The notes: generated by a model not told the origin, from the letters alone. Numbered from the whole stretch's first letter, positions 13,101-37,504 are shown. The stretch: DNA of 63,018 bases, filler included, from 6 parts of 6 records of this genome joined end to end with filler, not necessarily neighbours in it; one strand, 5' to 3'. Made by a program: numbers and translations.

Positions 13101-13147
13101 CCTTGCGCAAGACAGCGGTTAATCTGGCGCCAAAGCGGAGATATGCC

Positions 13148-16713: not shown

Positions 16714-16720
16714 GGGGGGT

Positions 16721-18037: not shown

Positions 18038-18042
18038 GGGGG

Positions 18043-18094: not shown

Positions 18095-18103
18095 GAGAGG
18101 CGC

Positions 18104-19222: not shown

Positions 19223-19653
19223 CTCCGCAGCGCATCACCCTTGTCACCCTCGGTGTCGCCGACATGGCGCGGTCACGCGCGTTCTATGAGACGCTTGGCT
19301 GGGAAAGGCACCCCGAAAGCCAGAAGGCGGTGACGTTCTATCAGGCCAACGGATTTGCCTTCGGGCTGTTCGGGTTAGAGGATCTGGCGAAGGATCAGGG
19401 GCGGCCAGACGCACAGCTTGGGACAGGGGCTGCAACCCTCGCCCAGACCTTTGCAACCGAGGCCGAGGTGGACGCCGCCTATTCCCGCGCCCTGACCGCC
19501 GGTGCAACAGCGCTGAAAGCCCCGGAAAAGGTGTTCTGGGGCGGCTATTCGGGCTATTTCGCAGACCCGGACGGGCATGTGTGGGAACTTGCGATGAACC
19601 CGTTCTGGCCTCTGAACGCCGATGGCAGCCTGACCTTGCCCAATGCGGATTGA
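19219..19653 (+). CDS. VOC/glyoxalase-family protein
   Basis: ITLVTLGVADM..FY, FWGGYSGYFADPDGHVWE. Confidence 0.88.
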   Translation: MTPQRITLVTLGVADMARSRAFYETLGWERHPESQKAVTFYQANGFAFGLFGLEDLAKDQGRPDAQLGTGAATLAQTFATEAEVDAAYSRALTAGATALKAPEKVFWGGYSGYFADPDGHVWELAMNPFWPLNADGSLTLPNAD

Positions 19654-20176
19654 AACGATCCCCGAACACGCGCTTTCAGCGGACATCGACACCGCCATCG
19701 GCGCGCTGATGGATGCGGGTTTTGGTGAGGAGGCGGGGTTTCGCGGGCAGTCGTTCCATAAGATGCGCCATCACCTCCGCATCGTCGGTTGGCAGGACGG
19801 GCAGATGATCGGCCATGTCGCCATGCAGTTGCGGGCAATCCGGGCCAACAACGCGGCCCTGACCATCGCCGCGATTGGCGAGGTTGCGGTCCATCCCGCG
19901 CATCAAGGCAAGGGGATCGGCAGCGCCCTGATGCGACGGGCGATCGGCACAGCCAAGGACACTGTGGCAGAATTCGCCATGCTGTTTGGCCACCCCGGCC
20001 TCTATGCGCCGCTTGGCTTTTGCAATCAGCCCAATCGGCTGACTTATGTCACGTGGGCAAACCACACCCCCCGCGATGTTGTCACCGATACAATCGAAAG
20101 CTTGATGGTGCTTCCGCTCGGCTCTACGCACTGGGACGAGACCGCCGAGATCAACCTCTGCGGACCGCTGTTCTAA
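19643..20176 (+). CDS. GNAT-family N-acetyltransferase
   Basis: VAVHPAHQGKGIGSALM acetyl-CoA motif; LY..LGF. Confidence 0.85.
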   Translation: MRIETIPEHALSADIDTAIGALMDAGFGEEAGFRGQSFHKMRHHLRIVGWQDGQMIGHVAMQLRAIRANNAALTIAAIGEVAVHPAHQGKGIGSALMRRAIGTAKDTVAEFAMLFGHPGLYAPLGFCNQPNRLTYVTWANHTPRDVVTDTIESLMVLPLGSTHWDETAEINLCGPLF

Positions 20177-20185
20177 GAGGACCCC

Positions 20186-20806
20186 ATGACGCTGACCTTC
20201 GCGCAGGCCGCGCTTTACGCCGGGGCATTGTTCGTGCTGTTCCTGACGCCCGGCCCGGTGTGGCTGGCACTGGCGGCGCGCACATTGGCGCATGGAGTGG
20301 CTGGGGCTTTGCCGCTGATCCTGGGTGTTGCGCTTGGCGATGTGGCCTGGAGCCTGCTTGCCATCCTGGGGCTCAGCTGGGTCGTGCAAAGCTATGCCGG
20401 CATCATGGTGGTCCTGCGCTGGTTGGCGGTTGTCGTTTTCGCGCTGATGGGGCTGCTGATCATTCGCCACGCGGATCGGGGCATCGAGGCCGACAGCCGC
20501 CTGAACCGCAAAGGCGCGTGGGCCGGGTTCGTGGCCGGGCTTGCCGCCATCCTCGCCAATCCCAAGGCGGTGCTGTTCTACATGGGGATGCTGCCCGGCT
20601 TCTTCGATCTGACTGCCCTGACAGGCACGGATATCGCGGTGATCGCCGCCATTTCCATGTGCGTTCCGGTGATGGGTAACCTGATGTTCGCCATTTTTGT
20701 GGATCGTGCGCGGCGGCTGATCACTTCGCCCGGCGCCCTGAAACGCACCAACCAGATCGCGGGCAGCCTGCTGATCGGGGTGGCAGTGATCATTGCGCTG
20801 ACCTGA
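20186..20806 (+). CDS. LysE/RhtB-family amino-acid exporter
   Basis: TPGP and NPKA motifs; multiple TM helices. Confidence 0.88.
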   Translation: MTLTFAQAALYAGALFVLFLTPGPVWLALAARTLAHGVAGALPLILGVALGDVAWSLLAILGLSWVVQSYAGIMVVLRWLAVVVFALMGLLIIRHADRGIEADSRLNRKGAWAGFVAGLAAILANPKAVLFYMGMLPGFFDLTALTGTDIAVIAAISMCVPVMGNLMFAIFVDRARRLITSPGALKRTNQIAGSLLIGVAVIIALT

Positions 20807-20874
20807 TGGCGCAGGCCCATTACAAGATCGTCCCACACCACCGCAATTAGCCACCTAAATCTTGTGTCACACCC

Positions 20875-20903
20875 GTGACATTCCCTGCCACGGAACGTAT
20901 AAG
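20875..20903 (+). promoter_or_regulatory. Putative sigma70 promoter of gyrB
   Basis: GTGACA-N17-TATAAG upstream of ATG 20932. Confidence 0.5.
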
Positions 20904-20931
20904 AAGTAGACAAGAAAAACAGGGGTCATCC

Positions 20932-21780
20932 ATGGCCGAAAACGCGCAGGCACCAGTCGAATACGGTGCGGATTCTATCAAGGTTCTCAAAGGGTTGGAG
21001 GCCGTCCGCAAACGCCCCGGTATGTATATCGGGGATACGGATGACGGGTCCGGTCTGCACCACATGGTGTATGAGGTCGTAGACAACGGCATTGACGAGG
21101 CTTTGGCCGGCCACGCCGACGCCGTGACGGTGACGATTCACGCCGACAATTCGGTCTCGGTCCGTGACAACGGGCGCGGGATTCCCGTGGGCATCCACGA
21201 GGAAGAAGGCGTCAGCGCGGCAGAGGTCATCATGACCCAACTGCACGCGGGCGGTAAATTCGACGACAACGCTTACAAGGTGTCGGGCGGCTTGCACGGC
21301 GTCGGCGTTTCGGTGGTGAACGCCCTGTCTGACTGGCTGGACCTGCGGATCTGGCGCGATGGCAAGGAACACTATGCCCGGTTCGAAGGCGGCTTTACCG
21401 TCAAGCACTTGGAAGTGGTCGGCGACGCCAATGGCGAGAAGGGCACCGAAGTCCGCTTCATGGCCTCGACCGGCACGTTCTCGAACCTCGAATATGTCTT
21501 CAAGACGCTGGAAAACAGGCTGCGCGAACTCGCGTTCCTGAATTCCGGCGTGCGGATCATCTTGAACGACCTGCGCCCGGCTGAACCGCTACGGTCCGAA
21601 CTGTTCTATGAAGGCGGCGTCAAGGAATTCGTCCGCTATCTGGACCGGTCCAAGCAATCCGCGATGCAGGAACCGATCTTCATCACCGGCATCCGCGACG
21701 ATATCGAGATTGAAGCGGCGCTGTGGTGGAATGACAGCTACCACGAAACGGTGCTGCCCTTCACCAACAACATCCCGCAG
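20932..21780 (+). CDS. gyrB: DNA gyrase subunit B, 3'-truncated
   Basis: [50 protein letters not shown]. Confidence 0.97.
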
Positions 21781-21880
21781 NNNNNNNNNNNNNNNNNNNN
21801 NNNNNNNNNNNNNNNNNNNNNNNNTTAATTAATTAANNNNNNNNNNNNNNNNNNNNNNNNNNNNNNNNNNNNNNNNNNNN
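21781..21880. other. Artificial contig-joining spacer
   Basis: N run + TTAATTAATTAA + N run. Confidence 0.98.
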
Positions 21881-21881
21881 T

Positions 21882-21953
21882 ACTTCCCGATCAAATTTCA
21901 AGCTGAACCGGACCGCTGCCCTCGCCGAGTTGCGCCAGTTGCTTGCAGGCTAG
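21882..21953 (+). CDS. Possible C-terminal fragment of an unidentified gene cut by the contig edge
   Basis: Reads TSRSNFKLNRTAALAELRQLLAG-stop; too short to assign. Confidence 0.25.
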   Translation, partial: TSRSNFKLNRTAALAELRQLLAG

Positions 21954-22054
21954 GAGTTGGGTTTAGGCCAAGCCTTATATTTATTTGCATTGTTGTGACA
22001 CCCCCCTTGTTAGAAGCCCCTAATCTTTTTGACCTTGTTCAGGGCTTCTCATTG

Positions 22055-23218
22055 CTAGGAAGGACGTTGGCTTGCTTTGGCGATGAAAAACAGAAGTGTC
22101 GCCACCACAAGCACAGCAACTGACGCTATGGGCAGAGCAACAGGGCCAAAAGCTTCGTACACCGCGCCACCGCCTGCCGCACCCAACCCTTGTCCGCCAA
22201 AAAACGCAGAAGCGTTGAGTGCGAGGGCCAGTTGCGCGCGTGGACCTGCAGTTTCCATCAGTCGTGCCTGCAAAGGGGCAAGGCAAAGGGCCCAGCCGAC
22301 ACCAAAAAAGATGAACGCCGGGTAGGACAGCCAGTAAAAATGCGGTGCAACCCATAAGATCAAGAAACAGAAGGCTGTAAACACAAGACCGCCAAGGATC
22401 GTCCCATCGCGCCCAAGCAGGCGCACCAAATGTGAGGAGAAAGCATTGCCTATGACCGACGCGATACCTGCTGCCAGCAGGGCCGTCGTGAGGGCCGTGC
22501 GTGGCGCGCCGCCCACTTCGACAAACCAGAACGCGATCATCGCGTAAGTGATGAAACCGCCACAGATCAGCAAAAGTGTGGTGGCAATGGTCAGTGATGT
22601 GGCGCGATCAGAAAGGACGGCCAACATTGCCGAAAATGAAGCCCGCGTGCCACGTACGCCACCCGGAACGCCGACAGCTACACCCACTGCGGCGACAAAT
22701 GCCGCTCCTGCTGCAACGAACCAAGCCGCACGCCAACCCGCAAATTCGGCTACCGCACTAGATATCGGCAGCGCCACAACCAGCGACGCCGTAAGCCCGC
22801 CAAAGACCACAGACATCGCAGCAGGCCGCTGCGCATCTGTTACCAATGACGCAGCAATCACCGAGGCCGTGGGCATGACCGAGGCTGCCCCCAAGGCCAT
22901 GGCAACACGTGCGGCCATCGCCTGTTCCCAGTTTTGCGCAAATCCAAGTGCCAAGCCGCCACACCCCAGCAAGGCCAGCGAGGCGAACAACACCGCGCGG
23001 CGATCCCAATGGCCGATCAGAACCTGTGCGACCAATGCACCAACCGCAAGCGAGAAGGAAAAGGCCCAAACCAGTGCCGCGACTTCCTCGGCAGTAATGC
23101 CCAAACCTGACCGCATTTCGACCTGTACGGCGATTATGGCAAGTGAACCCCAGCTTGCGCAGAGTTGACAAAATCCAAGCAGGATCAGAATTGGCCAGGC
23201 GCGTCCCATAGGTTTCAT
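22055..23218 (-). CDS. MFS transporter (DHA1/AraJ-like efflux)
   Basis: About 12 hydrophobic helices; motif A-like GHWDRR; AARVAMALG; start at 23218 or 23209. Confidence 0.85.
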   Translation of the reverse strand: MKPMGRAWPILILLGFCQLCASWGSLAIIAVQVEMRSGLGITAEEVAALVWAFSFSLAVGALVAQVLIGHWDRRAVLFASLALLGCGGLALGFAQNWEQAMAARVAMALGAASVMPTASVIAASLVTDAQRPAAMSVVFGGLTASLVVALPISSAVAEFAGWRAAWFVAAGAAFVAAVGVAVGVPGGVRGTRASFSAMLAVLSDRATSLTIATTLLLICGGFITYAMIAFWFVEVGGAPRTALTTALLAAGIASVIGNAFSSHLVRLLGRDGTILGGLVFTAFCFLILWVAPHFYWLSYPAFIFFGVGWALCLAPLQARLMETAGPRAQLALALNASAFFGGQGLGAAGGGAVYEAFGPVALPIASVAVLVVATLLFFIAKASQRPS

Positions 23219-23293
23219 TCCCTCGATTGGTTCGTTTGCGTGGCGTGATGGGGTGCACATACCCCAAGGTCATCAAGCCTTTCTTATAATTTT

Positions 23294-23344
23294 ATACTGC
23301 TACGTATTTTAATGTTCTTGCAAGCTTAAAATACTGTAAGGTAC
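23294..23344. promoter_or_regulatory. Two candidate TetR operators between the MFS and TetR genes
   Basis: ATAC-TGCTAC-GTAT (23294-23307) and ATAC-TGTAAG-GTAC (23331-23344). Confidence 0.5.
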
Positions 23345-23350
23345 TTATTT

Positions 23351-24004
23351 ATGAGCAACAACACTGACAAACCAGCCCGCGGACGGCCAAGAACTTTGCA
23401 ACGAGAGCATGTGCTCAAGATTGCGGTGGAAAGTTACTGGACCGATGGACTGACAGGTGTTTCGATAGAAGAGATTTGCCGCCGAGCAGGAGTCTCCAAG
23501 CCGGGGGTTTATCGGGAGTTTGGTAACGAAGACGGGTTAAAACAGGCCGCCTTGGAAAGGTATCAGTCGACTATCTTGGCACCGCTCGCAGATATTTTGA
23601 CCGATGATTTGCCCTTTGAACAGGCATTGAGGAAATTGACTGACTTTGTTCTCTTGGATCGCAAGGCCCACGGACTGCCTGCTGGCTGCTTGCAGGTTAC
23701 TACGTGTCGTAGCAAGCAAACCCTAGGAAAGCGAACTCGAGAGAGTGCACATAAATTTAGCGATCAAACCCTAATGGGTCTTGAACAGTGGATAGACCGG
23801 GCGAAATCAAAAGGGCAGTTTGCAGTCGAGATACCTACGCGGACCGCAGCACTGTACGTTGATGCTCAGATCGCAACTGCGATGGAACTCCAACAGCAAG
23901 GCGTGACCCAAAAAGAGTTGGAGCGTGTTTTCAAGCTGGCTCTTACTGTATTTTTTGAGAAAAGGCGTCCTATTCTGGACCAGATTTTCAGTGAGTTCGT
24001 TTGA
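23351..24004 (+). CDS. TetR/AcrR-family regulator
   Basis: RGRPR, SIEEICRRAGVSKPGVYREFG HTH; divergent from the MFS gene. Confidence 0.9.
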   Translation: MSNNTDKPARGRPRTLQREHVLKIAVESYWTDGLTGVSIEEICRRAGVSKPGVYREFGNEDGLKQAALERYQSTILAPLADILTDDLPFEQALRKLTDFVLLDRKAHGLPAGCLQVTTCRSKQTLGKRTRESAHKFSDQTLMGLEQWIDRAKSKGQFAVEIPTRTAALYVDAQIATAMELQQQGVTQKELERVFKLALTVFFEKRRPILDQIFSEFV

Positions 24005-24551
24005 CGATTCTGTCCTCTACTGAATTGAGCTCTTCAGGTGTGAAAAGAGATTGGAGCGCGCTTTTTGCTTCAACAGCGGACCGTGGCGCGGCCGCATTGA
24101 ACGTCCGCTTCGTCAGCTCTGCCGACCTTCATCAACGAAAAAGGTGTTGTCAGAACAAACCGACTTCAGACGGGCACGACGGTCGCATAGCCTCGCCGGA
24201 TCACAAAACGCAGTCCGTTTTGATATTTCGAAACCAGGCCGGAGATCATCCGCCAGGCGGTCATACTTTACCAGCGCTTTGCGCTTTGGCGTCGGAGACG
24301 GGTTCGAATTTGGCGGGCCGCACCGCCATTTCCTTTTAATAACAAAAACTTACATGCACCGCCTGGTTTTCATCAGGGGTTTAAAAACGCAGCATAACGT
24401 GCTGCGCGTCCCGGCTGAGCATGGGTTTTTGTCTGGTCAGTTGCACGAGGCTGATGTCTTTTGGGATATGCGGCGCCCAATGCATCATGCCCTATCGCGG
24501 CTCAGAAAGAATTGAGGCACCCAATCGGCATATAGCGGCGATAGCATGGTC

Positions 24552-26531
24552 TTACACCGCCATACCAATCATTCGACCGTCGCGGAACGCTGCCGCAGCC
24601 AGCCTTGGTGCGGCGGCATCGCCCACGGGGCGCACATCAATATTGCGGGCGCGTAAGTCTTCTAAAAGGGTCGCATCACATCTATTTGACGTGGCCAGCA
24701 CCAACGAGGCCGCGGGGATATGGGTTTCTTCGCCTGTCAGCAGCGACACCACACGCGCACCCTGCGCAGACCATTGGGTTATCGCAGTTTCGGTGATGAA
24801 ACGAACGCCAAGCCGGGCCAATGTCTGGCGGGCGTTGAAATCGGTTGCGCTGCGGCTCAGGTCGCGGGCGATCATGGCATCGGGGGTAAGTATGGTTACC
24901 TGATGACCTTGTTCCGCCAGATGCCACGCTGTTCCGATGCCTTTCCAGTGCCCCCCTTCGTCAAGCAGAAGCACGTGATCGCCAAGGCGGGCGGCGCGGC
25001 CCATCACGTCTTCGGTGGACCAGACATTGCCTGCCCCTATGCCAGGCAGTTCCGCGACCTGTGGCAGGGCCTTTTGAAACCCGCGACCCGCTGGCAAAGA
25101 GCCGGTGGCAAGGATCACCACATCGGCGGCCAGCGCGGTAATTTCACCGGCCTCCATGTAGCTGTTAAACCAGATCTCGACCCCCAGTTTGGTTAACTGC
25201 CGCTCATACCATGCGATCAGGTCTGTAATCTGGGCGCGGCGTGGTTGCTTGCCGGCAAAGCGGAATTGCCCACCCAGCTCTGGCCCTGCCTCGGCCAGTG
25301 TCACCCGGTGGCCGCGTTCAGCGGCAACGCGCGCGGCCTCTAGCCCGGCGGGGCCAGCGCCGATCACCAGCACAGTGCGCGGGGCCGGGGCAGGGGTGAA
25401 TCGGTCGCCGCCCCAGGCGTATTCATGCCCGGCTGACGGATTGATCAGGCATGAGATATAATAATCCCGGCTGCGCCGCCCCCAGCATTGCTGATTGCAG
25501 GAAATACAGCCGCGAATATCGTCTGTGCGCCCCTGGGCTGCCTTGTTTGCCAGATGCGGATCGGCGATTTGCCCGCGCACGATAGATACCAGATCAGCTT
25601 GGCCCGCACCCAAAAGCGTATTTGCGTTCTCAGGCGTGCGAATGCCCGCCTCGGCCGTCACCCTTGCGCGCAACCCCGCCTGTTTCAGGCGCTCGGCCAG
25701 ATCGACACCTAGGTTTTCAGGGTATTGAAAGCTGGGGATGATTTTTTGAAAATCTACATAACTGCCGGCGCCGACGGTGACATAATCCATCAGCCCTTGC
25801 GCATCGTGCAGGCGCAAGATGTCGACCATCTCGTCGCGCGTTGGAAAGACACCTGTGTTTGGATCGTCCGAGATCGCCAGCCCGATGATGAAGGTTTCGC
25901 CACAGGCGCTGCGGATGCGGCGCAGCACTTCGCGTGAAAACCGGGTGCGGTTTTCCAGGCTGCCGCCCCATTTGTCGCCGCGCTGGTTTGAAAATGGCGT
26001 CCAGAATTGATCGAGTAATGAATGATAGGCCGCCCACACCTCGACCCCGTCGAAACCGGCCTTCTGACAGCGGATCGCGGCCTGCACAAAGGCGTCGATT
26101 GTTTCTTCGATCTCATCCTCTGACATGGCGCGGCTGCCATCATTGTCATGGTAGCTTGGCCCGCCCGAGGGCGACCAATTCGCATGCCACGAGTTATCCC
26201 AATCGCCATGCGCGCCGATATGGTAGAGCTGCTGGATCATCACTGCGCCTTGCGCCTGACAGGCCTGCGTGATGCGCTTGAAATGCGGTATCACGTCATC
26301 TGTGCTGGGGCGGAAATTGCCCCGCGTCAGCACGGCCGCGGGGTGGACGGGCATCGGCTCTACCACGATCATAGCGGCACCGCCGCGCGCGCGTTCAAGG
26401 TAATAGCCAAGGTGTTGATCACCGGGCAGGCCGTCGTTGGCCATGTTGGCCGTATGCGCGCCAAAGACAATACGGTTGCGCAGCGTCTTGTGGCGCAGGG
26501 GCAGTGGCTGGAACAGGTGTTTGAAACTCAT
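24552..26531 (-). CDS. NADH:flavin oxidoreductase / OYE-like flavo-iron-sulfur protein (TMADH/DCR/StcD architecture)
   Basis: LRNRIV, ERARGGA, WGGSLENRTRF, CISCNQQC..C cluster, GAGPAG. Confidence 0.88.
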   Translation of the reverse strand: MSFKHLFQPLPLRHKTLRNRIVFGAHTANMANDGLPGDQHLGYYLERARGGAAMIVVEPMPVHPAAVLTRGNFRPSTDDVIPHFKRITQACQAQGAVMIQQLYHIGAHGDWDNSWHANWSPSGGPSYHDNDGSRAMSEDEIEETIDAFVQAAIRCQKAGFDGVEVWAAYHSLLDQFWTPFSNQRGDKWGGSLENRTRFSREVLRRIRSACGETFIIGLAISDDPNTGVFPTRDEMVDILRLHDAQGLMDYVTVGAGSYVDFQKIIPSFQYPENLGVDLAERLKQAGLRARVTAEAGIRTPENANTLLGAGQADLVSIVRGQIADPHLANKAAQGRTDDIRGCISCNQQCWGRRSRDYYISCLINPSAGHEYAWGGDRFTPAPAPRTVLVIGAGPAGLEAARVAAERGHRVTLAEAGPELGGQFRFAGKQPRRAQITDLIAWYERQLTKLGVEIWFNSYMEAGEITALAADVVILATGSLPAGRGFQKALPQVAELPGIGAGNVWSTEDVMGRAARLGDHVLLLDEGGHWKGIGTAWHLAEQGHQVTILTPDAMIARDLSRSATDFNARQTLARLGVRFITETAITQWSAQGARVVSLLTGEETHIPAASLVLATSNRCDATLLEDLRARNIDVRPVGDAAAPRLAAAAFRDGRMIGMAV

Positions 26532-27262
26532 CTGCCGCTCTCCAGTTGGTCCAAGCCGCTACGCAAGGCATCGCGCATCCCGCAGTTTTCAAGCGTTTGG
26601 CGCAAGCGTTGGTTAAAGCCGCCCGGTGTATTCAAGGCCTCGACAACACTGCCTGCCTGCGTATTGGCCAAGCTTGACGTTACGAGGTGGCGTAAAAACG
26701 CATCACCGCGTTCTGGGTCTGCGACCCGGGTTGAAAGCCAGGCGGTTGTATCCTCAACCAGCCGCGCGACGGGCGAAAGCACCGCCTGCGCGCTGATATA
26801 AGCCGCCATCTCTGCATCATTTTCGATCATGTAAACCGTGTTGGCCGGTGCAACCAGCGCGCGCACCAGATCACCGTTGCCCTGAACCAACACGGGCGAG
26901 CCGCCCGCCGCGATGCCGGGAAAGGGCAGCATCACCGCCAAGGCTCGCGCCGGCGCAACCATGGCAGCGACCGTTTCCAGCGATACGCCCCCCATCAGCG
27001 AAATCACCTGTTGGTCGGCGCGAAATGACAGGCCATGTAAAATGCCAGGCGCCGCGTCAGCCATGAGCGCCACGAGAATAACGTTGCTTTGATCTAGCAC
27101 CTCTTGGTTTGAGGCCACGCAGACATTGTTGAATTCCTTAGCCAGGGCCTGTGCGTGATGCGCGCTGCGTTCGCAAACGGCAATCTGATGCCCATCTCCA
27201 GCGATCCCGCGAACTACCGCTGATGCAATCGTGCCCGTTCCTATAACCCCGATCCGCATCAT
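26528..27262 (-). CDS. Pyrroline-5-carboxylate-reductase-like NAD(P)-dependent oxidoreductase
   Basis: Rossmann [23 protein letters not shown] (S/TPGG motif); ATGA-coupled on both sides. Confidence 0.78.
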
Positions 27263-28287
27263 TTTGCCCCCCATGTATCTGACAACCGATACCCCTCGGG
27301 CCAGGGGTCGGACGGATCCAGCATGTGTTGGTGGATGCCGGTGATCCAGCCGCGCCCCGAGATTTCAGGAATAATGGCCGCGCGATCACCCGCCTTGGTT
27401 TCGCCAAGTATCGTGCCGGAAAAGGTTGATCCGATCAGCGAATGCGCGGTCAGACGATCGCCTTTTTTCATCACGCCGCGGGCGTGCAGCAGCGCCATGC
27501 GCGCCGATAGCGCGGTGCCCGTTGGCGAGCGATCAACCTTGCCAGGTTGGATGGCCACCGCAGCGCCAGTTTCCAGGCCCGCAGGCCCAGCGGTAAGAGG
27601 CCCGGCAAAGAGGCAGAAAGAGATATGTCGCCAATCCTGGTTCTCGGGGTGGCGAAAGCCCAGCTGTTCGTTGGCCGCATTTGTAATGCGCACACCCAGC
27701 TTGGCGATGTCATGTGCCTCGCTGGCATTCAGCGAAAACCCAAGTGCCGCCGCATCGACCACCACAAAACTATCGCCGCCATAGGCCGTATCTACGCGCA
27801 GCGTGCCCAGGCCTGCGACCTCTAGGCTTTGGTCAAGCTCGGCGGCAAAGGATGGCACGTTTTGCACATGGATACGTTCGGCCTTGCCGTTTCGGCAATC
27901 TGCCCGCACACGCACCAGCCCACCGGGTGCTTCCAGCACCATGTGGGTTTCCGGCTCGACCATCGGCACAAGGCCCGCATCCAAAAGCACGGTTGATACG
28001 CAGATCGCATTCGAGCCAGACATCGGCGGCGTGTCTTCGGGTTCCATGATGATCCATGCCACCTGTGCATCGGGATGTTTGGGTGGCACCAAAAGGTTGA
28101 CGTGCCGAAACACGCCGCCGCGTGGTTCGTTCAGCATAAAGTTGCGCAAGCTCTGATCCCGTGCGATCCAGTGGCTTTGCTCCCAGATGGTGTCGCCGGG
28201 GGGCGGCAAAACACCACCGACGATCACATCGCCAACCTCGCCCTCGGCATGCGCCGAGATCACATGGATGGTCTTGGTTGCGCGCAT
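27259..28287 (-). CDS. Proline-racemase-family protein, Ser/Thr type (trans-3-hydroxy-L-proline dehydratase-like)
   Basis: HAEGE, EPRG, PMSGSN and DRSPTGT in place of MCGH/DRSPCGT. Confidence 0.85.
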
Positions 28288-28288
28288 C

Positions 28289-30334
28289 TTAGATATCCTT
28301 GAGCAATCGCAGCGCGTCATAGATCGCCGCATGGGTGTTGCGTGCGCTGACCGCGTCACCGATGCGAAACAGCTGGAAGCTGCCTTTGGCGTTGCGGGTC
28401 ACGTCCTGCGGGCGGCCTTGGGTCAGCGCGTCGTGATCGACCGCACCACCATTCGATGACAGGGGCTTTAGCGCGAAATAAAGATCATCCAGCGGCAGGG
28501 TGCCGTAGTTTACCACGATCTGGTCATAGGTCTTTTCACTGGTGTAATCGCTATAGTCTGTGCCGATTGTCGCCTTCAGGCGGTTGCCATCCTTTTGCAC
28601 AGCCTTCAGGCGGCGTGTGACAGTGAATGTCACGTCCTTATCTTGCAGCGCCCGCATATAGGGCACAAGGTTCATCGCCATAACCTCGGGGGCAAAGCTG
28701 CGATCGGGGGTCATCACCTCGACATGTGCGCCCGCTTTTGCGGCAACCTCGGCAGCCATCAGACCGGCGTGATCGCCCGCTTCGTCAAAGATCAGCACGT
28801 CTTGGCCGGGCTTTACATCGCCCGAGATGATATCCCACGACGACACGACCAAGGGCTGATCGGCGCGGTCTTCGAAAAGGCCCGTATTGGGCATGCCGCC
28901 GGTGGCCACAATCACCACATCGGGGTTCAGCGCGGTCACATCCGCCACCTCGGCCCAAGTGTTGAAATGAAATGCCACATCGCGCGCGGCACATTGCGCC
29001 ATGCGCCAGTCGATGATGCTGATCATCTCGCGGCGGCGCGGGTTTTGCGCGGTCAGGCGAACTTGGCCACCGGGGTCGGGCTGGGCCTCGAACACTGTCA
29101 CATGATGGCCGCGTTCGGCGGCGACGCGGGCGGCTTCCAAACCGGCGGGGCCCGCGCCAATGACGACCACCTTTTTCAAGGTTTCCGCCGGCGGTATCGC
29201 ATGCGGCATGGTTTCCTCGCGCCCTGTTGCAGGGTTGTGGATGCACAGGGCCATGCCGCCTTGATAGATGCGGTCCAAACAATAGGTTGCGCCAACACAG
29301 GGGCGGATGTCATCTTCGCGCCCCTCCATGATCTTTTTCACCACATGCGGGTCGGCCATATGGGCGCGGGTCATCCCGACCATATCCAGCAGGCCTGCGG
29401 CGATGGCATGGCGCGCGGTCGCCACATCGGGGATCTTTGCGGCATGGAAGGTGGGCATGCCGGTTGCCGCCTTGACCGCGCCTGCGAAATCCAGATGCGG
29501 GGCGTTTTTCATGCCCTGCACCGGGATCACATCTGTCATCGCCGGATCGGTATGGATGCGTCCACGGATCACGTTCAGGAAATCGACCATGCCGCTATTG
29601 GCCAGTTTCTTTGAAATCTCGATGCCCTCTGCGGCGGTAATGCCGCCGGCCTCGGCCTCGTCTGCTGTGTAGCGCAGGCCAATGATGAACTCGTTGCCCA
29701 CACGTTTGCGGATGCCGCCAAGCACGTCCATCAGCAGCTGCATGCGAGTATCCAGTGTTTGCCCGCCGTAAGGCCCCTCTAGATCGTTGGTCAATGGCGA
29801 CCAGAATTGATCGAGCAGGTGGCCATAGACCTGCAGCTCGATGCCATCCATCCCGCCCTCTTTCATGCGTTCGGTGGCATCGGCAAAATCGGTGATGATG
29901 CGTTCAATATCCCAATCTTCGGCACGTTTGGGAAAGGCGCGATGCGCCGGTTCGCGGTGCATGGTTGACGATATCGATGGCAGCCAATCGCCCTTATCCC
30001 AGCGTGTCCGCCGCCCAAGATGGGTCAACTGGATCATCACCGCACAGCCATGATCGTGGCAGGCATCGGTGAGCCGTTTGATATGGGGCACCACCTCGTC
30101 TTTATAGGCTAAGATGTTGTTGAATACCGGCGGGCTGTCTTTGGACACGGCAGCAGAGCCTGCCGTCATGGCCAGTGCCACACCCGCCTTGGCCCGTTCC
30201 GCATGATAGGCGGTGTAGCGCCCCTTGGGCATGCCATCTTCGGGATAGGCCGGTTCGTGGCTGGTGGTCATGATGCGATTGCGCAGCGTTAGGTGTTTCA
30301 ACTGATAGGGCTGAAGAAGGGGGTCGGTCGACAT
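28289..30334 (-). CDS. stcD: StcD/HpbA-like flavoprotein (N-methylproline demethylase-like NADH:flavin oxidoreductase)
   Basis: [60 protein letters not shown]. Confidence 0.78.
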
Positions 30335-30373
30335 GTCGGGCCTCTTGGATGACTGATGGCACTATTCGAAAAA

Positions 30374-30410
30374 TGTTCATATGTGTCAAATAAAAGATCA
30401 CTAGTGTCTA
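30374..30410. promoter_or_regulatory. Candidate tandem operator between stcD-like gene and TetR
   Basis: TGTTCATATGTGTCAA and AGATCACTAGTGTCTA; GTGTC cores at 30383 and 30404 (21 bp apart). Confidence 0.45.
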
Positions 30411-30451
30411 TTTTCCTTGTGAACACCCGCCCCTGCAGCTACACTGGCCTG

Positions 30452-31105
30452 ATGAGCGTGCAGGCAGATCCCACCATTTCCGACGAAAAAACCACCGGCT
30501 GGCGTGGCTCGCGCGATGTGTGGGTGGCTGCCGCGCGGCAGGCGCTTATTGCCTCTGGTGTGGATGCTGTAAAAATTCAGCCGCTGGCCCAAAACCTGCA
30601 AATTGCGCGCACCAGCTTTTATTGGTTCTTCAAGGACCGTAAGGCGCTTTTGGATGCGTTATTGGAAGAATGGGATGCTAAGAACACAGGCGCCTTCATT
30701 GATGCCTGTGGCGCCTATGCAGAAACCATTTCCGAGGCGGTTTTGAACCTGATCGCGGTTTTCCATGATGAGGCACTTTTTGAGCCGCAGCTGGATTTTG
30801 CGATACGTGGCTGGGCGCACAAATCTGACGCGGCGGCCGCACGTGTGCACCAGGCCGATGAGGCCCGGCTGACTGCTATTCGAGAGATGTTTGCGCGTTT
30901 TGGGTTTGCCGAGAATGAGGCAGATGTGCGGGCGCGGACCGTCTATTTGACCCAGATAGGCTATATTTCCATGCAAGTTTCCGAGACTGCGGCTGTGCGG
31001 ATTGCCAGAACACCCGGATATGTGAAAACCTTTTGCGGGCAAGACCCCAGCGCAGGCGAATTGGCGCGTTTTTACGCACGCTTGCGGTTCACCCCGGCAG
31101 CATAG
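30452..31105 (+). CDS. TetR-family regulator (HpbR-like), divergent from the stcD-like operon
   Basis: GWRGS..W, GVDAVKIQPLA..IARTSFYWFF HTH. Confidence 0.85.
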   Translation: MSVQADPTISDEKTTGWRGSRDVWVAAARQALIASGVDAVKIQPLAQNLQIARTSFYWFFKDRKALLDALLEEWDAKNTGAFIDACGAYAETISEAVLNLIAVFHDEALFEPQLDFAIRGWAHKSDAAAARVHQADEARLTAIREMFARFGFAENEADVRARTVYLTQIGYISMQVSETAAVRIARTPGYVKTFCGQDPSAGELARFYARLRFTPAA

Positions 31106-31282
31106 GTTTAAAGAACGCGCCGCTTTGGCGGTGCAGGGCAAGGGTGGGTTGGGCGGGGCGCGCTGCGCGCATTTTCGGCTATAGGGCCGATGGGCTGGAC
31201 GAGCCGATGCAGGGCGGCCTGCCCTTTCCCGCCTGCACAGATGCGGCGGTGGCAGACATTGCCACCCGTTACGCCAGCCGGC

Positions 31283-31538
31283 CTAAAGCAGCCCGGCCTC
31301 TTGCAGCACTTTACGCGCCACGCGAAAGCATTCCATCCCCTGTGGAACGCCACAATATATGGCCACCACGTGGATAATGGCGCGAATTTCTTCTGGGGTG
31401 ACGCCGTTGTTCAGCGCGCCTTTGCAGTGGATTTCCCATTCATGCATCTTGCCCAAGGCGCCGATCATGGACAGGTTCATCATGCTGCGGGTTTTGGCAT
31501 CGATCACCTCATCGCCCCAGCCAAAGCCCCAGCACCAG
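31283..31538 (-). CDS. Carboxymuconolactone decarboxylase (CMD/AhpD-like) family protein, 5'-truncated
   Basis: WCWGFGWG..KTRSMMNL, GALNNGVT.EEI, AIYCGVP. Confidence 0.8.
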
Positions 31539-31638
31539 NNNNNNNNNNNNNNNNNNNNNNNNNNNNNNNNNNNNNNNNNNNNTTAATTAATTAANNNNNN
31601 NNNNNNNNNNNNNNNNNNNNNNNNNNNNNNNNNNNNNN
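31539..31638. other. Artificial contig-joining spacer
   Basis: N run + TTAATTAATTAA + N run. Confidence 0.98.
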
Positions 31639-31851
31639 GTCATCCTCGCCCCAATGGGGGTGGGTGCAGCAGGTATTCGTCCACAGGCCGGGCGTGTGGT
31701 ATTTCACCGAGGCGCGTTTTTGCAGCAGCACCCTGTCGCCATCGGTGACAAAAATCGAAATCGCCTTGTGGCGCAGCCCGCGGCGGTGCACATCGACCTT
31801 ATCAAGCGGCTTCAGCGCGCCATTTTCCCAAGCTGGAATAAGCCATTTCAT
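31639..31851 (-). CDS. idi: Isopentenyl-diphosphate delta-isomerase (type I), 3'-truncated
   Basis: VHRRGLRHKAISIF, LLQKRA, WTNTCCTHP. Confidence 0.92.
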
Positions 31852-33035
31852 GTGTAGCTTGCCTTTACCAACCCGCTGAGATGCAACAGGTTTTTGATGC
31901 CGATGCGCAAATGCGCCATGGGCCGTGCCGCCACCAGCTGTTTGTTCATATAGGCCTCGAATGTCAGGCGCTGCACATCGATATCATGGCACAGGCTGAC
32001 GAAGCGCTCGCGCCGGTCGTCCGAGCGGTAATAGGCGTCTTGCATGCGCCGCAGCACTTTGAACACCATGCCGTGCTGGCGCATGAATAGCTTGCGCGCC
32101 AGTTTCAGATCGCGCGCGCGGCCGCTTGCCAAAAAGGCCTGCGCGGCGGTGGCGGCCACCCGGCCCCCCGCCATGGCGTAATATATGCCCTCGCCCGAGC
32201 TGGGGGCCACCACGCCCGCAGCATCGCCTGCCAGCACCACATCGCGGCCATTGTCCCAGGCCGCCAAGGGCTGCAGGGGTATGGGCGCGCCCTCGCGGCG
32301 GATGGTTTCGCAGCCGGCCAGCCCAGCCATATCGCGCAGGCGGGCGGTGGCCTGTTTCAGATCTGTGCTGCTTTCTTCGGTGCCCATGCCAACGCTGGCG
32401 CTGGGGCCATGGGGAAAGACCCAGCCGTAAAAATCGGTTGATATCGCGCCATCGTAGATGACATCGCAGCGCGTGGGGTCGTAATTGGCATTTGCAGGCG
32501 GCGCTTTGATGATTTCGTGATAGGCGATGACATAAGGAATTTTATCGCCTCCCGGCACCTCGGCGCGGGCCACAGTGCTGCGCGCGCCATCTGCGCCAAT
32601 CACCAGCCGGGTGCGGCTGTGGCGCTCTTGCCCGCTGTCTTTGTCGCGCCAGATCACCCGGGTGCCGGCGCTATCGCGTTCGATGCGCACAAAGGTGCCG
32701 GTCAGCCGATCGGCCCCGTTTTGCTGGGCGCGGGCGCGCAGATATTCGTCGAAATCTTCGCGATCAACCATGCCGACAAAGCCATTTTCAATGGCGATAT
32801 CCACCGCCCGGCCCGTGGGCGAGATCATGCGGGCGGTAGAGATGCGCGCCACGATCAAATGATCTGGAATGGCGAAATCGGCAATAAGCCGGGGTGGAAT
32901 GGCCCCACCGCAGGGCTTGATGCGCCCGGCCCGATCAAGCAGCGCCACCTTATGCCCGGCGCGTGCCAGATCATCGGCCGCGGTGGCGCCCGATGGCCCA
33001 CCGCCCACAATGAAAACATCGTAATCCATGCTCAT
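31848..33035 (-). CDS. bchP: Geranylgeranyl reductase
   Basis: VGGGPSG, KPCGGAIP, FYGWVFPH, GDAAG..GEGIYYA. Confidence 0.95.
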   Translation of the reverse strand: MSMDYDVFIVGGGPSGATAADDLARAGHKVALLDRAGRIKPCGGAIPPRLIADFAIPDHLIVARISTARMISPTGRAVDIAIENGFVGMVDREDFDEYLRARAQQNGADRLTGTFVRIERDSAGTRVIWRDKDSGQERHSRTRLVIGADGARSTVARAEVPGGDKIPYVIAYHEIIKAPPANANYDPTRCDVIYDGAISTDFYGWVFPHGPSASVGMGTEESSTDLKQATARLRDMAGLAGCETIRREGAPIPLQPLAAWDNGRDVVLAGDAAGVVAPSSGEGIYYAMAGGRVAATAAQAFLASGRARDLKLARKLFMRQHGMVFKVLRRMQDAYYRSDDRRERFVSLCHDIDVQRLTFEAYMNKQLVAARPMAHLRIGIKNLLHLSGLVKASYT

Positions 33036-34312
33036 TCCCCTGCTACCAGCTGGGGGCGGCTGGCGCCGCCCATGATTGTTGCCGCCATGACGGCTGCGGC
33101 CAAAAACAGCAGCGCCTGCAGGCTGAAAACCGCGCCAAAGGCGTCGTTTGGTGCCAAAAAGTGGCGTGCGATATCCACCAGCGCCGCGCCCGCCAGCCCG
33201 CCAAAGCCTGCGGCAATGGCCTGCGAGGCGCCCCACAGCCCCATGCGCGTGCCTTCGCGCTGGCCGCCGCCTTCGCCGGCCAGCTGCATCATGGCGCTGA
33301 TCGCGGCCACGGCGAATATGCCGTTAAACAGGCCCAGCCCGATGACCAGCATTTGAAAGGGCACGGCCAGATGCGGGGCCAGAGTGATGGCCCCCAGCAT
33401 GGCGGCCGAGCCCACGCAGCCCAGCATCACCCATGTGCGTGGCGTGCCGATACCAAGGCCCGATGACATCAGGCCAACCGCCAGCATGCCTGTAAACACG
33501 CCGCCATTTTGCGCGCCCGACAGCCGCGTGCTTTCGCCTGGTGTATAGCCAAAGGCAAGGCCGGCGTAGGGCTCGAGTATCAGCTCTTGCATGAAATAGG
33601 CGGTCATCGACAGGAAAACGAAGATGGTGAAATTGCGCGCTTTTGGGTCAGCCCAGGCCTCGGCCAGGGCTGCGGCAAAGGGGGTGTTGGGGCGCGCGCC
33701 TTGCGCATGATCGGGGCGCAGGCCACGTTCGATGCCGGCCACGGCCAGCGCGGTCAGCGCCAGCGCCCCCAGGCAGACTGCGGCCACCACCCACAACAGC
33801 CGCGTGTGGCTGTAAGGGTCTAGCACGCTGCCCACGGTAATGGCGGTCAGCGCGATGCCTGCGATCATCATAAGCCAGGTAATCATTGCGGCGGCGGGGC
33901 GGCGTTTGGGGGCGGTGGCCGCCGCCAAAAGCGCCAAAAGCGATGTGCCCGAGGCGCCAACGCCCAGCCCAATCACCGCATAGCACAGCACCGACAGCGC
34001 CAAGCCTGCGCCAAAATGCGTGGCCAGCAGCGGAATGGCCGCAGCGCTGCCCATGCCGCCCGCGGCCAGCAGCGCCATGCCGCCCACAATCCAGCGGGTG
34101 CGATGGCCGCCCTTATCGGCCATATGGCCCCATTTGGGGCGGGTGATTTGCACCGCGTAATGCAGCGCCACCAATAAGCCCGGCACGATGGCCGCCAGCG
34201 ATAATTCTACCACCATCAGGCGGTTCAGGGTGGATGTCATCAACACCACAATCGCGCCAAGGCAGGCCTGAACCAGCCCCAAACGCATGATTTGCAGCCA
34301 GCTTAACGTCAC
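33032..34312 (-). CDS. pucC: PucC-family (BCD) MFS protein between bchG and bchP
   Basis: RLGLVQ..STLNRLMVVE, ELILEPYAG, GLWGASQA. Confidence 0.85.
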   Translation of the reverse strand: MTLSWLQIMRLGLVQACLGAIVVLMTSTLNRLMVVELSLAAIVPGLLVALHYAVQITRPKWGHMADKGGHRTRWIVGGMALLAAGGMGSAAAIPLLATHFGAGLALSVLCYAVIGLGVGASGTSLLALLAAATAPKRRPAAAMITWLMMIAGIALTAITVGSVLDPYSHTRLLWVVAAVCLGALALTALAVAGIERGLRPDHAQGARPNTPFAAALAEAWADPKARNFTIFVFLSMTAYFMQELILEPYAGLAFGYTPGESTRLSGAQNGGVFTGMLAVGLMSSGLGIGTPRTWVMLGCVGSAAMLGAITLAPHLAVPFQMLVIGLGLFNGIFAVAAISAMMQLAGEGGGQREGTRMGLWGASQAIAAGFGGLAGAALVDIARHFLAPNDAFGAVFSLQALLFLAAAVMAATIMGGASRPQLVAGE

Positions 34313-35205
34313 AGTGCCATCCCCCGCAGCGCATGGGCTGCCACCATCATACCCAAAACATAAGGGCCCACGCCCGTGCCATTAAACCATGGCGCGCGCG
34401 CAGCTGGCGCCTGGCGCCAGCGCCCCAGCGCCCAGATCTGCACGCCAATCCCCAGGCCGATCAGCCCGGCATGCAAGGCCGCGCCCCAGATCAGCAGCAA
34501 GGCCACCACCACCAGCTGCGACAGCACCATCACTGTGCCCGCCACGGTGGCCGCGTCGGTTGGGCCTAAAACCACCGGTAGCGATTTCAGGCCCATCTGC
34601 CTGTCGCCTTCGATGGCCTTGAAATCGTTGATTGTCATGATGCCATGGGCGCCCAGCCCATAAAGCAATGCGATGGCGGTAATTTCAAACTGTGGTGCTG
34701 TGCCCAGCACCACCACGGCGCCTGTCCACCAGGGCAGGGCCTCGTAACTCAGGCCCACCAGCCCCGGCCCCCACCAGCCCGAGCGTTTGGCGCGCAATGG
34801 CTTGGCCGAATAGGCCCAGGCCGCCGCCACGGCGGCCAATGTGGCGCCAAAGCCCCATGGCCCCAGCCAGCTGCCCACCCAGAGCGCCAGTGCGCTCATG
34901 GCCCATGCCACATATAGGCCCAAACGCCCCGGAATGCGCCCCGAGGGGATCGGGCGGTTTGGCTCGTTTATCGCATCGACATGGCGGTCACACCAATCAT
35001 TGGCAGCCTGGCTCATGCCACAAACAATGGGGCCCGCCAGCACGATGCCCACCACCCCCAGGCGCCAATCGGCCCAGGTGCCGCCCGCCGCGATCAAGCC
35101 ACAAAGATAGGCCCACATGGGCGGAAACCATGTAACGGGCTTGATCAGCTCTAGCAGGGCCAAAGGCTGCAGGCGGGGTGCATGTATATGATCTGTGACA
35201 CTCAT
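34309..35205 (-). CDS. bchG: Bacteriochlorophyll synthase
   Basis: KPVTWFPPMWA, NDWCDRHVDAINEPNRPIPSG, NDFKAIEGD. Confidence 0.95.
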   Translation of the reverse strand: MSVTDHIHAPRLQPLALLELIKPVTWFPPMWAYLCGLIAAGGTWADWRLGVVGIVLAGPIVCGMSQAANDWCDRHVDAINEPNRPIPSGRIPGRLGLYVAWAMSALALWVGSWLGPWGFGATLAAVAAAWAYSAKPLRAKRSGWWGPGLVGLSYEALPWWTGAVVVLGTAPQFEITAIALLYGLGAHGIMTINDFKAIEGDRQMGLKSLPVVLGPTDAATVAGTVMVLSQLVVVALLLIWGAALHAGLIGLGIGVQIWALGRWRQAPAARAPWFNGTGVGPYVLGMMVAAHALRGMAL

Positions 35206-35259
35206 GTGTAAATCTTGACTGTCAATTGCGAGTCTCGCAAGTGTAAAGTTTGATTTACA
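35183..35259. promoter_or_regulatory. PpsR/CrtJ operators at the bchG start
   Basis: TGT-N12-ACA at 35183-35200 and 35242-35259 (TGTAAAgtttgaTTTACA); near-match at 35207-35224. Confidence 0.8.
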
Positions 35260-35857
35260 TATGGCTATTTGCCGGATGGGGCAAAATTTCAAAGCGGCAG
35301 CAGGCATCGCCGCAGGCCATGCAGCTGGTTTCGCGGGCCTGTGCGGCGGGCCAGATCAGCGCGGAAAACAGCGTTTGAAACACCGCGGCATGCCAGTGGC
35401 AACTGGGGGCATTGGCCGGGGGCGCGGCCATGGCCAGCGGGTTTTGGTGCAGCTCAAGGCCCAAGGGCCTGCGCTGTGCAACCCGCAGTTGGCCGCTGCC
35501 TGCAAATGTCCAGGCGTGCTGCAAGATCGCGCGCGTCAGCAGCCGGGCGCCCCATGTGGCAGGCAGGGCGCGCAGCAGTGCTTGTGCGGGGCGCGGAATG
35601 CGATTGGCCAAAATATAGCGCCCCGTGCCCACACCTGCCGCCCATTGCAGCGCCGGGGCGCCTGTGCCCAAATGCCGGGTGACGGCGTTGTGAAACCGGG
35701 CCACGGTGGCTTGTGCCACCATGCCATGGGCGGCGGGGGGCTGGGCCAGCCCGGCCTGCGCCAGCAAGGCGGCCGTGGCGCCGGGGCCAAGGCTGCTGTG
35801 CAGCAGGGGCAGGTGCTGCAAAATGGCGTTTGGGCCGATATGTGCGGTGGCGTGCAT
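35255..35857 (-). CDS. bchJ: BchJ (V4R-domain protein)
   Basis: IGPNAIL, YILANRIP, HAWTFAGSG, CHWHAAVF, C.A.G...CRF. Confidence 0.9.
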   Translation of the reverse strand: MHATAHIGPNAILQHLPLLHSSLGPGATAALLAQAGLAQPPAAHGMVAQATVARFHNAVTRHLGTGAPALQWAAGVGTGRYILANRIPRPAQALLRALPATWGARLLTRAILQHAWTFAGSGQLRVAQRRPLGLELHQNPLAMAAPPANAPSCHWHAAVFQTLFSALIWPAAQARETSCMACGDACCRFEILPHPANSHM

Positions 35858-35859
35858 GG

Positions 35860-37488: not shown

Positions 37489-37504
37489 GTGCAACTCCCT
37501 TATG

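Follow-up and report, generated by a model that had tools for sequence, protein, structure and literature searches.

A TetR-controlled operon that may funnel N-methylated and 3-hydroxylated proline derivatives into L-proline in a marine Roseobacter-type bacterium

What is the function of an operon in which two related flavoproteins, a proline-racemase homologue and a reductase are placed under a single TetR-family regulator? The question is raised by positions 24552-31105 of the window, the whole stretch of DNA that was analysed here (63,018 nucleotides). The answer preferred here, with a probability of roughly 0.55 judged from sequence, is that these genes form a TetR-controlled catabolic operon that would funnel N-methylated and 3-hydroxylated derivatives of proline into L-proline. 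Between phytoplankton and Roseobacter-group bacteria, methylated nitrogen osmolytes serve as a major currency.

The locus consists of five genes. The TetR-family regulator gene (30452-31105, plus strand; listed open reading frame, ORF, 30356-31105) encodes a TetR_N domain (Pfam). It is followed on its upstream side by a divergent control region (30335-30451) with a promoter-like site directed toward the operon, and then by four genes on the minus strand. The first of these encodes an HpbA orthologue (28289-30334). The second encodes a predicted trans-3-hydroxy-L-proline dehydratase of the Ser90/Thr256 type (27259-28287; listed ORF 27259-28359), which matches Pro_racemase (Pfam). The third, for a ProC-like reductase (26528-27262; listed ORF 26528-27274), contains F420_oxidored (PF03807), the N-terminal domain of ProC. 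The fourth encodes a second flavoprotein, here called Flavo2 (24552-26531). Both flavoproteins combine an Oxidored_FMN domain with a Pyr_redox_2/FAD-type domain (Pfam).

The junctions between the four genes are extremely tight. The stop codon of the HpbA gene is separated from the dehydratase start by a single nucleotide (TAA-g-ATG), and the two junctions that follow, dehydratase/ProC-like and ProC-like/Flavo2, are ATGA overlaps; the four genes are therefore translationally coupled. The initial annotation of this DNA had described a TetR gene divergent from four tightly coupled genes, and all five genes and their junctions were confirmed where it had placed them. Its identification of the individual proteins also holds in most respects, as the following paragraphs describe.

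The first gene of the operon probably encodes an N-methyl-L-proline (imino acid) demethylase. The protein was initially called HpbA-like, and it is 72.8% identical to the products of Paracoccus plasmid genes annotated as hpbA, N-methyl-L-proline N-demethylase, a reference that is an annotated homologue rather than the genetically studied Pden_1197 protein. It has the layout expected of HpbA, that of an amine dehydrogenase with an FMN domain of old-yellow-enzyme fold and an FAD/ADP domain in about 680 residues. According to passages of PMC3950512, the function of HpbA was assigned genetically in Paracoccus denitrificans, where an hpbA mutant does not grow on N-methyl-L-proline or proline betaine. 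The window's protein carries a three-cysteine motif, CVGATYC...C, with alanine at the usual position of the second cysteine. The pattern C-V-G-A-T/N-Y/F-C...C is invariant in 70 of 70 aligned HpbA orthologues. The distal flavoprotein has the four-cysteine motif CISCNQQC...C instead. The two proteins had been annotated as a flavo-FeS pair; this description fits the distal member, which has all four cysteines, and is less certain for the HpbA orthologue, which has only three.

The second gene would encode an enzyme that dehydrates trans-3-hydroxy-L-proline to delta1-pyrroline-2-carboxylate. Its product matches Pro_racemase (PF05544) over the full length with 440 bits. It scores 632.1 bits against the NCBIfam equivalog of trans-3-hydroxy-L-proline dehydratase (NF047722; cut-off 550), and falls under every cut-off of the proline racemase and 4-hydroxyproline epimerase models. 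Among solved structures it matches PDB 4K7G ('3-hydroxyproline dehydratase') with E = 7e-149. Alignments to solved structures place the start at ATG 28287, which is M25 of the listed ORF. Counted from there, the catalytic residues are Ser90 (TCT 28018-28020, in MSGSN) and Thr256 (ACG 27520-27522, in DRSPTGT, 27514-27534), at exactly the positions where serine and threonine had been annotated in place of the Cys/Cys pair. This numbering equals that of B9K4G4, the protein of 4K7G, for which Ser90/Thr256 are given in the text of eLife PMC4113996.

The third protein stands well apart from canonical ProC. It misses the cut-off of every ProC equivalog: the best of them, PRK06476, gives 136.8 bits against a cut-off of 254, and TIGR00112 gives 44 against 197. 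By sequence, its best solved relative is found with E = 4e-11, over the N-terminal half only. An AlphaFold model built with 40 orthologues (pLDDT 95.5) extends the likeness to the whole protein. The top Foldseek matches of this model are full-length pyrroline-5-carboxylate (P5C) reductases (2AHR, PYCR1), with a TM-score of 0.84 at 14-21% identity. The label of ProC-like reductase is thus supported by a two-domain P5C-reductase fold. Translation is taken to start at M5, which gives the ATGA overlap with the upstream stop codon. The modelled fold suggests that the protein may form L-proline by reducing delta1-pyrroline-2-carboxylate or a cyclic imine related to it. The position of its gene after that of the dehydratase, and the presence of an OCD gene in a comparable place of sibling loci, fit a reduction of pyrroline-2-carboxylate. 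No OCD/mu-crystallin (PF02423) or Ldh/MLD2 reductase gene is found on the window's contig.

The fourth protein, Flavo2, is 35% identical to the HpbA orthologue and so is a paralogue of the first flavoprotein, as initially proposed. Its four-cysteine 4Fe-4S motif lies between the FMN and FAD/ADP domains and is kept in 76 of 76 Flavo2 orthologues. A single GxGxx[GA] motif is present, at residue 391. The second GxGxxG motif, an NAD(P)H site typical of 2,4-dienoyl-CoA and enoate reductases, is absent from the C-terminal domain, where the aligned stretch is unlike the FadH motif. With one such motif, as in trimethylamine dehydrogenase and not as in 2,4-dienoyl-CoA reductase, Flavo2 looks more like a dehydrogenase than like an NAD(P)H reductase. 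In a pairwise alignment, Thr27, Pro59, Phe261 and Arg353 of Flavo2 stand opposite Cys30, Tyr60, Trp264 and Trp355 of trimethylamine dehydrogenase. We take Cys30 to be the site of the 6-S-cysteinyl FMN link and the other three residues to form the aromatic bowl for methylammonium. The covalent-FMN cysteine and the aromatic bowl are thus not present in Flavo2. All 120 of the listed Flavo2 homologues (120/120) bear generic names only. Its domain features and the genes found beside its sister clade suggest that Flavo2 would cleave a C-N bond oxidatively and hand the electrons to an external acceptor.

Taken in order, the four enzymes suggest the following route. In the first step, as orthology suggests, the HpbA orthologue would oxidise the N-methyl group of N-methyl-L-proline, and probably also that of its 3-hydroxy analogue, to release formaldehyde and the free imino acid. 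In the second, the Ser90/Thr256 enzyme would convert trans-3-hydroxy-L-proline to delta1-pyrroline-2-carboxylate, a step predicted from the curated equivalog and the catalytic residues. In the third, the enzyme of P5C-reductase fold would use NAD(P)H to reduce the imine to L-proline, as its fold and position suggest. Flavo2, of the trimethylamine-dehydrogenase type, would pass electrons via FMN and the 4Fe-4S cluster to an external acceptor. It may work alongside HpbA on another N-alkyl or cyclic amine, serving as a second demethylase or else supplying the reductase with a cyclic imine. N-methyl-3-hydroxyproline is a plausible substrate of the operon as judged from its genes.

Is this arrangement found elsewhere? 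A scan of one genome per species yielded 80 Flavo2 loci with 49-85% identity to the window's protein, and their gene content was determined by local tblastn, in which the queries were the window's proteins and references taken from annotated plasmids. The most frequent form, with 25 loci, is MttB-HpbA-ProC-Flavo2, followed by Flavo2 alone (11 loci, 5 of them with less than 6 kb of upstream sequence) and MttB-HpbA-Flavo2 (10 loci). The form seen in the window, HpbA-dehydratase-ProC-Flavo2, is found in 9 loci, and in 2 more with MttB in front. The dehydratase also occurs without the ProC-like gene, as HpbA-dehydratase-Flavo2 (4 loci) or MttB-HpbA-dehydratase-Flavo2 (2 loci). Forms of smaller size are HpbA-ProC-Flavo2 (4 loci), ProC-Flavo2 (3 loci, all truncated), HpbA-Flavo2 (3 loci) and MttB-Flavo2 (2 loci). 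Five single forms account for the other 5 loci. Counted by gene, HpbA is part of the operon in 61 of the 80 loci, the ProC-like gene in 45, MttB in 42 and the dehydratase in 22. The same number of loci, 61 of the 80, have Flavo2 directly downstream of HpbA.

De novo clustering of the neighbouring ORFs revealed one further conserved neighbour only, the divergent TetR gene (45 loci). Neither a conserved transporter gene nor a conserved corrinoid-protein gene emerged from this clustering across the 80 loci, and the rare neighbours are unrelated genes. The same TetR gene and four enzyme genes are found on plasmid pSMR1-6 of Pseudosulfitobacter pseudonitzschiae, with an OCD gene beside the TetR gene. 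Amino-acid identities by tblastn are 89% for HpbA, 90% for the dehydratase, 81% for the ProC-like protein and 83% for Flavo2.

The locus is therefore best described as one assembly of a modular family, TetR | [MttB] HpbA [dehydratase] [ProC-like] Flavo2, that is found mainly in the Roseobacter group. Its constant part is the pair HpbA and Flavo2 under a dedicated TetR regulator; its interchangeable modules are MttB, the dehydratase and the ProC-like gene. The four-gene order of the initial annotation is real, recurring in 11 of the 80 loci and on pSMR1-6, but it is not a fixed unit and represents one combination among several. Since 58 of the 80 loci lack the dehydratase, the role of Flavo2 is independent of 3-hydroxyproline. 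Where Flavo2 stands alone, its neighbours include an ABC transporter with an OCD gene, a TTT transporter, a creatinase-like peptidase, a sulfatase and others, with no common theme. The surroundings of ProC-like homologues in 6 relatives were uninformative: HpbA and MttB were present in one, and the others had unrelated genes (cupin, 2OG oxygenase, gyrB, RTX protein).

A second, unbiased sample took in 301 genomes of the family with roughly one for each genus; HpbA and Flavo2 were counted in it at E of at most 1e-200. HpbA was found in 148 of the 301 and Flavo2 in 43. Of these Flavo2 proteins, 15 are close orthologues (at least 64% identity) and 28 form a sister clade (58-62%). The gene for a close orthologue lies on the same strand as HpbA and no more than 3 kb downstream of it in 14 of 15 cases; the fifteenth is on a separate contig of a 490-contig assembly. 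Only 4 of the 28 sister-clade genes are near HpbA. In 16 sister-clade loci (L187-L202, 59-62% identity), an aldehyde dehydrogenase gene is adjacent in 8 and MttB in 4, and a homocysteine S-methyltransferase gene is present in 6. By its gene content, the sister-clade locus appears to be another unstudied amine or betaine locus.

In the same way, the dehydratase (at least 57% identity) was followed through 76 loci of different genera, of which 75 were classed for a tree and one was dropped. HpbA is directly upstream of the dehydratase in 9 of the 76 and divergent from it in 1; this adjacency links demethylation to the dehydration of 3-hydroxyproline. In the 75 classed loci, 9 dehydratases are linked to HpbA, 9 have an enolase-superfamily gene immediately upstream, 16 have a second racemase-family paralogue within 6 kb, and 41 fall in none of these classes. 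The dehydratase and Flavo2 samples share contigs (L113 is L029, and L165 is L074), so they are not independent. The two nearest of the compared genomes provide a compact example: genes for a TetR regulator and a TRAP transporter face HpbA (84% amino-acid identity) and the dehydratase (75-77%). The ProC-like gene and Flavo2 are absent from these two genomes. Another locus, L115, has an OCD-TetR pair facing HpbA-dehydratase.

The nine enolase-linked dehydratase loci (L133, L135, L137, L138, L140, L169, L170, L174 and L183) were noted separately. In five of them an Ldh/MLD2-type gene lies just downstream as well (L133, L135, L138, L140 and one more). They look like a combined cis/trans-3-hydroxyproline cluster.

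Several observations weigh against the proposal that the operon funnels N-methylated and 3-hydroxylated prolines into L-proline. There is no transporter gene inside the window's operon, and the MFS gene nearby is not conserved. The frequency of the ProC-like gene is nearly the same in dehydratase-bearing Flavo2 loci (13 of 22) and dehydratase-free ones (32 of 58); the reductase therefore has another or a broader role, and not only the reduction of pyrroline-2-carboxylate. The nine dehydratase-bearing loci that lack the ProC-like gene have no other known reductase within 10 kb. We know of no enzyme of the P5C-reductase family that reduces pyrroline-2-carboxylate. The HpbA assignment leans on an annotated reference, as stated above. 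On a tree of 70 HpbA rows, at least 12 changes in adjacency to the dehydratase are needed, 6 of them forced by well-supported branches, and HpbAs that hardly differ from each other (L062, L057) can have it or lack it, so HpbA is not specialised for these operons. Finally, the papers found on 3-hydroxystachydrine and N-methyl-hydroxyproline deal, in their accessible parts, with plant and human metabolomics and not with marine osmolytes or bacterial catabolism.

On the other side, the strongest evidence that HpbA may deliver trans-3-hydroxy-L-proline, and thus take an N-methyl-3-hydroxyproline as substrate, is that some HpbA-dehydratase pairs form complete two-gene operons with one regulator and one transporter. 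The pathway that was initially read from the window, demethylation followed by dehydration and reduction to proline, survives in part. The identities of the genes, their order and the link between HpbA and dehydratase stand, while a fixed four-gene unit and a tie of the reductase to the dehydratase do not.

The alternative that survives best, though we regard it as doubtful, is that two independent funnels share one operon. HpbA would demethylate N-methyl-L-proline derived from proline betaine, and the dehydratase and reductase would salvage free trans-3-hydroxy-L-proline, for instance from collagen or algal glycoproteins. N-methyl-3-hydroxyproline would then play no part, and the genes would be co-regulated because both routes end in L-proline. 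The changing adjacency on the HpbA tree fits this idea well, as it makes the dehydratase a movable insert. The window's dehydratase also belongs to the same orthologous group as the dehydratases of ordinary hydroxyproline clusters, with 16 of 75 beside a racemase paralogue and 9 of 75 enolase-linked, and locus L114, whose dehydratase shares 89% identity with that of the window, lacks an HpbA in its vicinity. The operons of the two nearest genomes argue the other way: with HpbA and dehydratase under one TetR regulator and beside one TRAP transporter, two steps acting on one imported substrate is the simplest explanation. The dehydratase tree does so too, in that HpbA-linked enzymes are partly clustered on it. 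The HpbA-linked label needs at least 5 changes, and the window falls in a well-supported clade in which 5 of 7 members are HpbA-linked.

Another explanation, which seems unlikely, joins Flavo2 with the ProC-like reductase as an oxidation-reduction pair. Flavo2 would oxidise a ring C-N bond of an imino acid to give a cyclic imine such as pyrroline-2-carboxylate, which would then be reduced to L-proline. Its substrate might be a D- or otherwise unusable proline derivative, and the dehydratase would merely feed the same imine pool. In keeping with this, NAD(P)H imine-reductase-type genes of four kinds adjoin Flavo2 or its close relatives. The ProC-like gene does so in 45 of 80 loci and a different ProC subfamily, 18-20% identical, in Rhizobium and Aminobacter; an Ldh/MLD2-family gene is seen in R. 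leguminosarum and L038, and OCD in L025 and pSMR1-6. The aldehyde dehydrogenases beside the sister clade would be expected if the product were an amino-aldehyde in equilibrium with a cyclic imine. However, Flavo2 occurs without the ProC-like gene in 35 of 80 loci, with no other known reductase within 10 kb there. No source of a D-imino acid is evident either, as a homologue of enolase-superfamily racemases is found in just 1 of the 80 loci, and known D-proline dehydrogenases belong to another flavoprotein family.

Flavo2 relatives with 63-65% identity, accompanied by the different ProC subfamily, were observed on R. leguminosarum plasmid pR132501 (L006) and Aminobacter plasmid pSR7 (L008). Their other neighbours are ProU-type ABC, Ldh/MLD2, and HpbA-like and ETF genes, or MttB with a corrinoid protein and an enolase-superfamily gene.

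Action on six-membered-ring or other analogues (N-methylpipecolate, hydroxypipecolate or pipecolate betaine) instead of proline derivatives is very improbable: P5C reductases and known pyrroline-2-carboxylate reductases also accept piperideine carboxylates, and PDB entries of human PYCR1 with L-pipecolic acid are among the fold matches, but the dehydratase scores above the cut-off of a proline-specific equivalog and the HpbA orthologue shares 73% identity with proteins annotated as N-methyl-L-proline demethylases.

Within the preferred reading, that of an operon funnelling proline derivatives into L-proline, a more specific version can be formulated. The operon would be a dedicated pathway for trans-3-hydroxy-N-methyl-L-proline, the ProC-like protein a third family of pyrroline-2-carboxylate reductases, and Flavo2 a new substrate class of the trimethylamine-dehydrogenase type. 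We consider this version tentative and would not expect it to hold in full. If it were true, the sibling operons with MttB would extend the pathway to 3-hydroxyproline betaine, and Flavo2 would widen the range of methylated imino acids open to marine Roseobacters.

The start of the window's TetR gene is most likely ATG 30452, not 30356 of the listed ORF; this in-frame ATG gives a protein of 217 residues that keeps the TetR_N domain. The protein shares 82% identity with the TetR of the matching operon on plasmid pSMR1-6, and 45-67% with each of the divergent regulators in the 45 Flavo2 loci that have one. Its identity to the TetR beside annotated Paracoccus hpbA is 53%. In the control region, TTGACA-17 nt-AATAGT on the minus strand (30389-30361) agrees with the promoter consensus at 10 of 12 positions, as a consensus match only. 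The palindromes found between the TetR gene and the operon are weak and non-conserved, and none is a convincing operator.

The operon stretch is not confined to this assembly. All 6.5 kb are near-intact (94-98% of sampled words) in 13 DNA runs. These come from 7 metagenome studies of seawater, marine and plastic-surface samples, and 4 of the 13 runs are possibly the source sample itself. Short contigs of low depth in three RNA-library studies cover Flavo2, HpbA and TetR in part. DNA carry-over is possible in these libraries, contigs of this kind do not demonstrate a transcript, and uncovered stretches carry no information; the contigs are a weak hint that the operon is expressed.

The surroundings of the operon have to be read with the structure of the window in mind. 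The window consists of six contigs, strung together by linkers with the structure N(44)-TTAATTAATTAA-N(44), at 5232-5331, 16614-16713, 21781-21880, 31539-31638 and 55017-55116. The word TTAATTAATTAA occurs 5 times in the window and 0 times in 100 shuffles. The operon-bearing contig, of marine Roseobacter-type, spans 21881-31538 (9,658 bp). It also carries an MFS transporter gene (22055-23260, minus strand), a second TetR gene divergent from it (23351-24004, plus strand), an ORF without a family (24051-24515) and, at its right end, a partial CMD-family gene (31262-31538). The MFS/TetR pair (22055-24004) is not kept beside the operon in other genomes, as judged from the clustered neighbours of the 80 Flavo2 loci. 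The partial CMD-family gene has 95-99% identity to two contig ends of the nearest genome. The assembly of this relative breaks at the same spot as the contig end in the CMD-family gene, and the rest of the operon contig matches there at no more than 75%.

On other contigs, dnaN-recF-gyrB genes (16714-21780) lie to the left of the operon, and bacteriochlorophyll genes (31848-37494: geranylgeranyl-reductase-like, PucC-family, UbiA-family synthase and B12/radical-SAM cyclase-like) lie to the right. Because the contigs are joined by linkers, the adjacency of the operon to the photosynthesis and dnaN-recF-gyrB genes is an artefact of joining. A genomic island beside the photosynthesis genes (16.6-31.3 kb of the window), which had rested on the 96-97% identity of its flanks to the nearest genome, was dropped, since its boundaries are contig linkers. 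What had looked like a truncated gyrB is merely the end of a contig. The bacteriochlorophyll contig is 97% identical to the nearest genome. The dnaN-recF-gyrB contig shows 72-75% DNA identity to this genome, compared with 96-97% for contigs 5332-16613 and 31639-35926. Possible reasons are a mixture of two related organisms in the assembly or mis-binning of the dnaN-recF-gyrB contig.

The significance of the operon lies partly in how common its first step is. HpbA is present in about half of the sampled genera, and the family points to three candidate enzyme functions that no database names: a Flavo2 tied to HpbA, a catabolic reductase of P5C-reductase fold, and a dehydratase recruited into demethylase operons. 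The carriers of the operon include cultured strains and a plasmid, which makes the hypothesis directly testable. Candidate cultured carriers are Pseudosulfitobacter pseudonitzschiae SMR1 (with pSMR1-6), Thalassovita litoralis DSM 29506, Thalassobius vesicularis CC-AMW-E, Leisingera sp. ANG59 and Paracoccus sp. M683. The initial annotation had allowed that the operon might already be fully characterised; no paper describing it was found in the open literature, subscription journals being outside the search. In parts of a preprint on choline degradation in Paracoccus, stachydrine is mentioned and hpbA paralogues are not. Homarine catabolism was considered and rejected, as the published homABCDER operon uses different enzymes according to passages of PMC13236597.

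Among the known systems, the closest is the pathway for proline betaine and hydroxyproline betaine in P. denitrificans, which, in passages of its description, comprises HpbD, HpbB1C1/B2C2, HpbA and PutA (Kumar et al. 2014, PMC3950512). The two would have in common the N-methylproline step of HpbA type and L-proline as the endpoint, and the window's TetR is an orthologue (53%) of the one beside an annotated Paracoccus hpbA. Unlike the P. denitrificans system, the window's contig lacks both an enolase-type betaine racemase and a Rieske demethylase. A gene for a first-step betaine demethylase of either kind, Rieske HpbBC or MttB, is absent from this contig. Sibling loci carry the MttB-family methyltransferase instead in 42 of 80 cases, and a Rieske protein with its reductase in 4 of 80. 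Three genes come on top of the described route, those for the dehydratase, the ProC-like reductase and Flavo2.

A second comparison is with the bacterial trans-3-hydroxy-L-proline pathway, in which, as Watanabe et al. reportedly described in 2014, a dehydratase is followed by a pyrroline-2-carboxylate reductase. The window shares a Ser/Thr dehydratase like B9K4G4, followed by a gene for an NAD(P)H reductase. Reductases of the OCD and MLD2 families are placed beside these dehydratases in the text of Zhao et al. 2014 (eLife PMC4113996); the terms 'Oxidored_FMN', 'demethylase' and 'F420' do not occur in its main text, to which figures and supplements do not belong. The window differs in that its reductase has the P5C-reductase fold and is neither OCD nor MLD2, and in that its dehydratase lies inside a demethylase operon. 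Compared with P5C reductase itself (ProC/PYCR1), the ProC-like protein has the same two-domain fold and a conserved T-P-G-G stretch, but it is only 14-21% identical, falls under all equivalog cut-offs and is encoded in a catabolic operon.

Flavo2 can be compared with trimethylamine and histamine dehydrogenases (PDB 1DJN, 3K30), with which it shares the three-domain layout, the four-cysteine motif and the lack of a second dinucleotide motif. It differs by its low identity (E = 7e-55), by threonine at Cys30, and by proline, phenylalanine and arginine at the bowl.

A last parallel is the aerobic, cobalamin-dependent demethylation of betaine by MtgBCDE (Mausz et al. 2025, PMC12478193). Sibling operons start with an MttB-family methyltransferase (PF06253), and like MtgBCDE they have no corrinoid-protein gene nearby; the window's own operon differs from both in having no MttB gene. 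Seen against all of these systems, the operon is a variant of known proline-betaine and hydroxyproline catabolism that belongs to a widespread, uncharacterised modular family.

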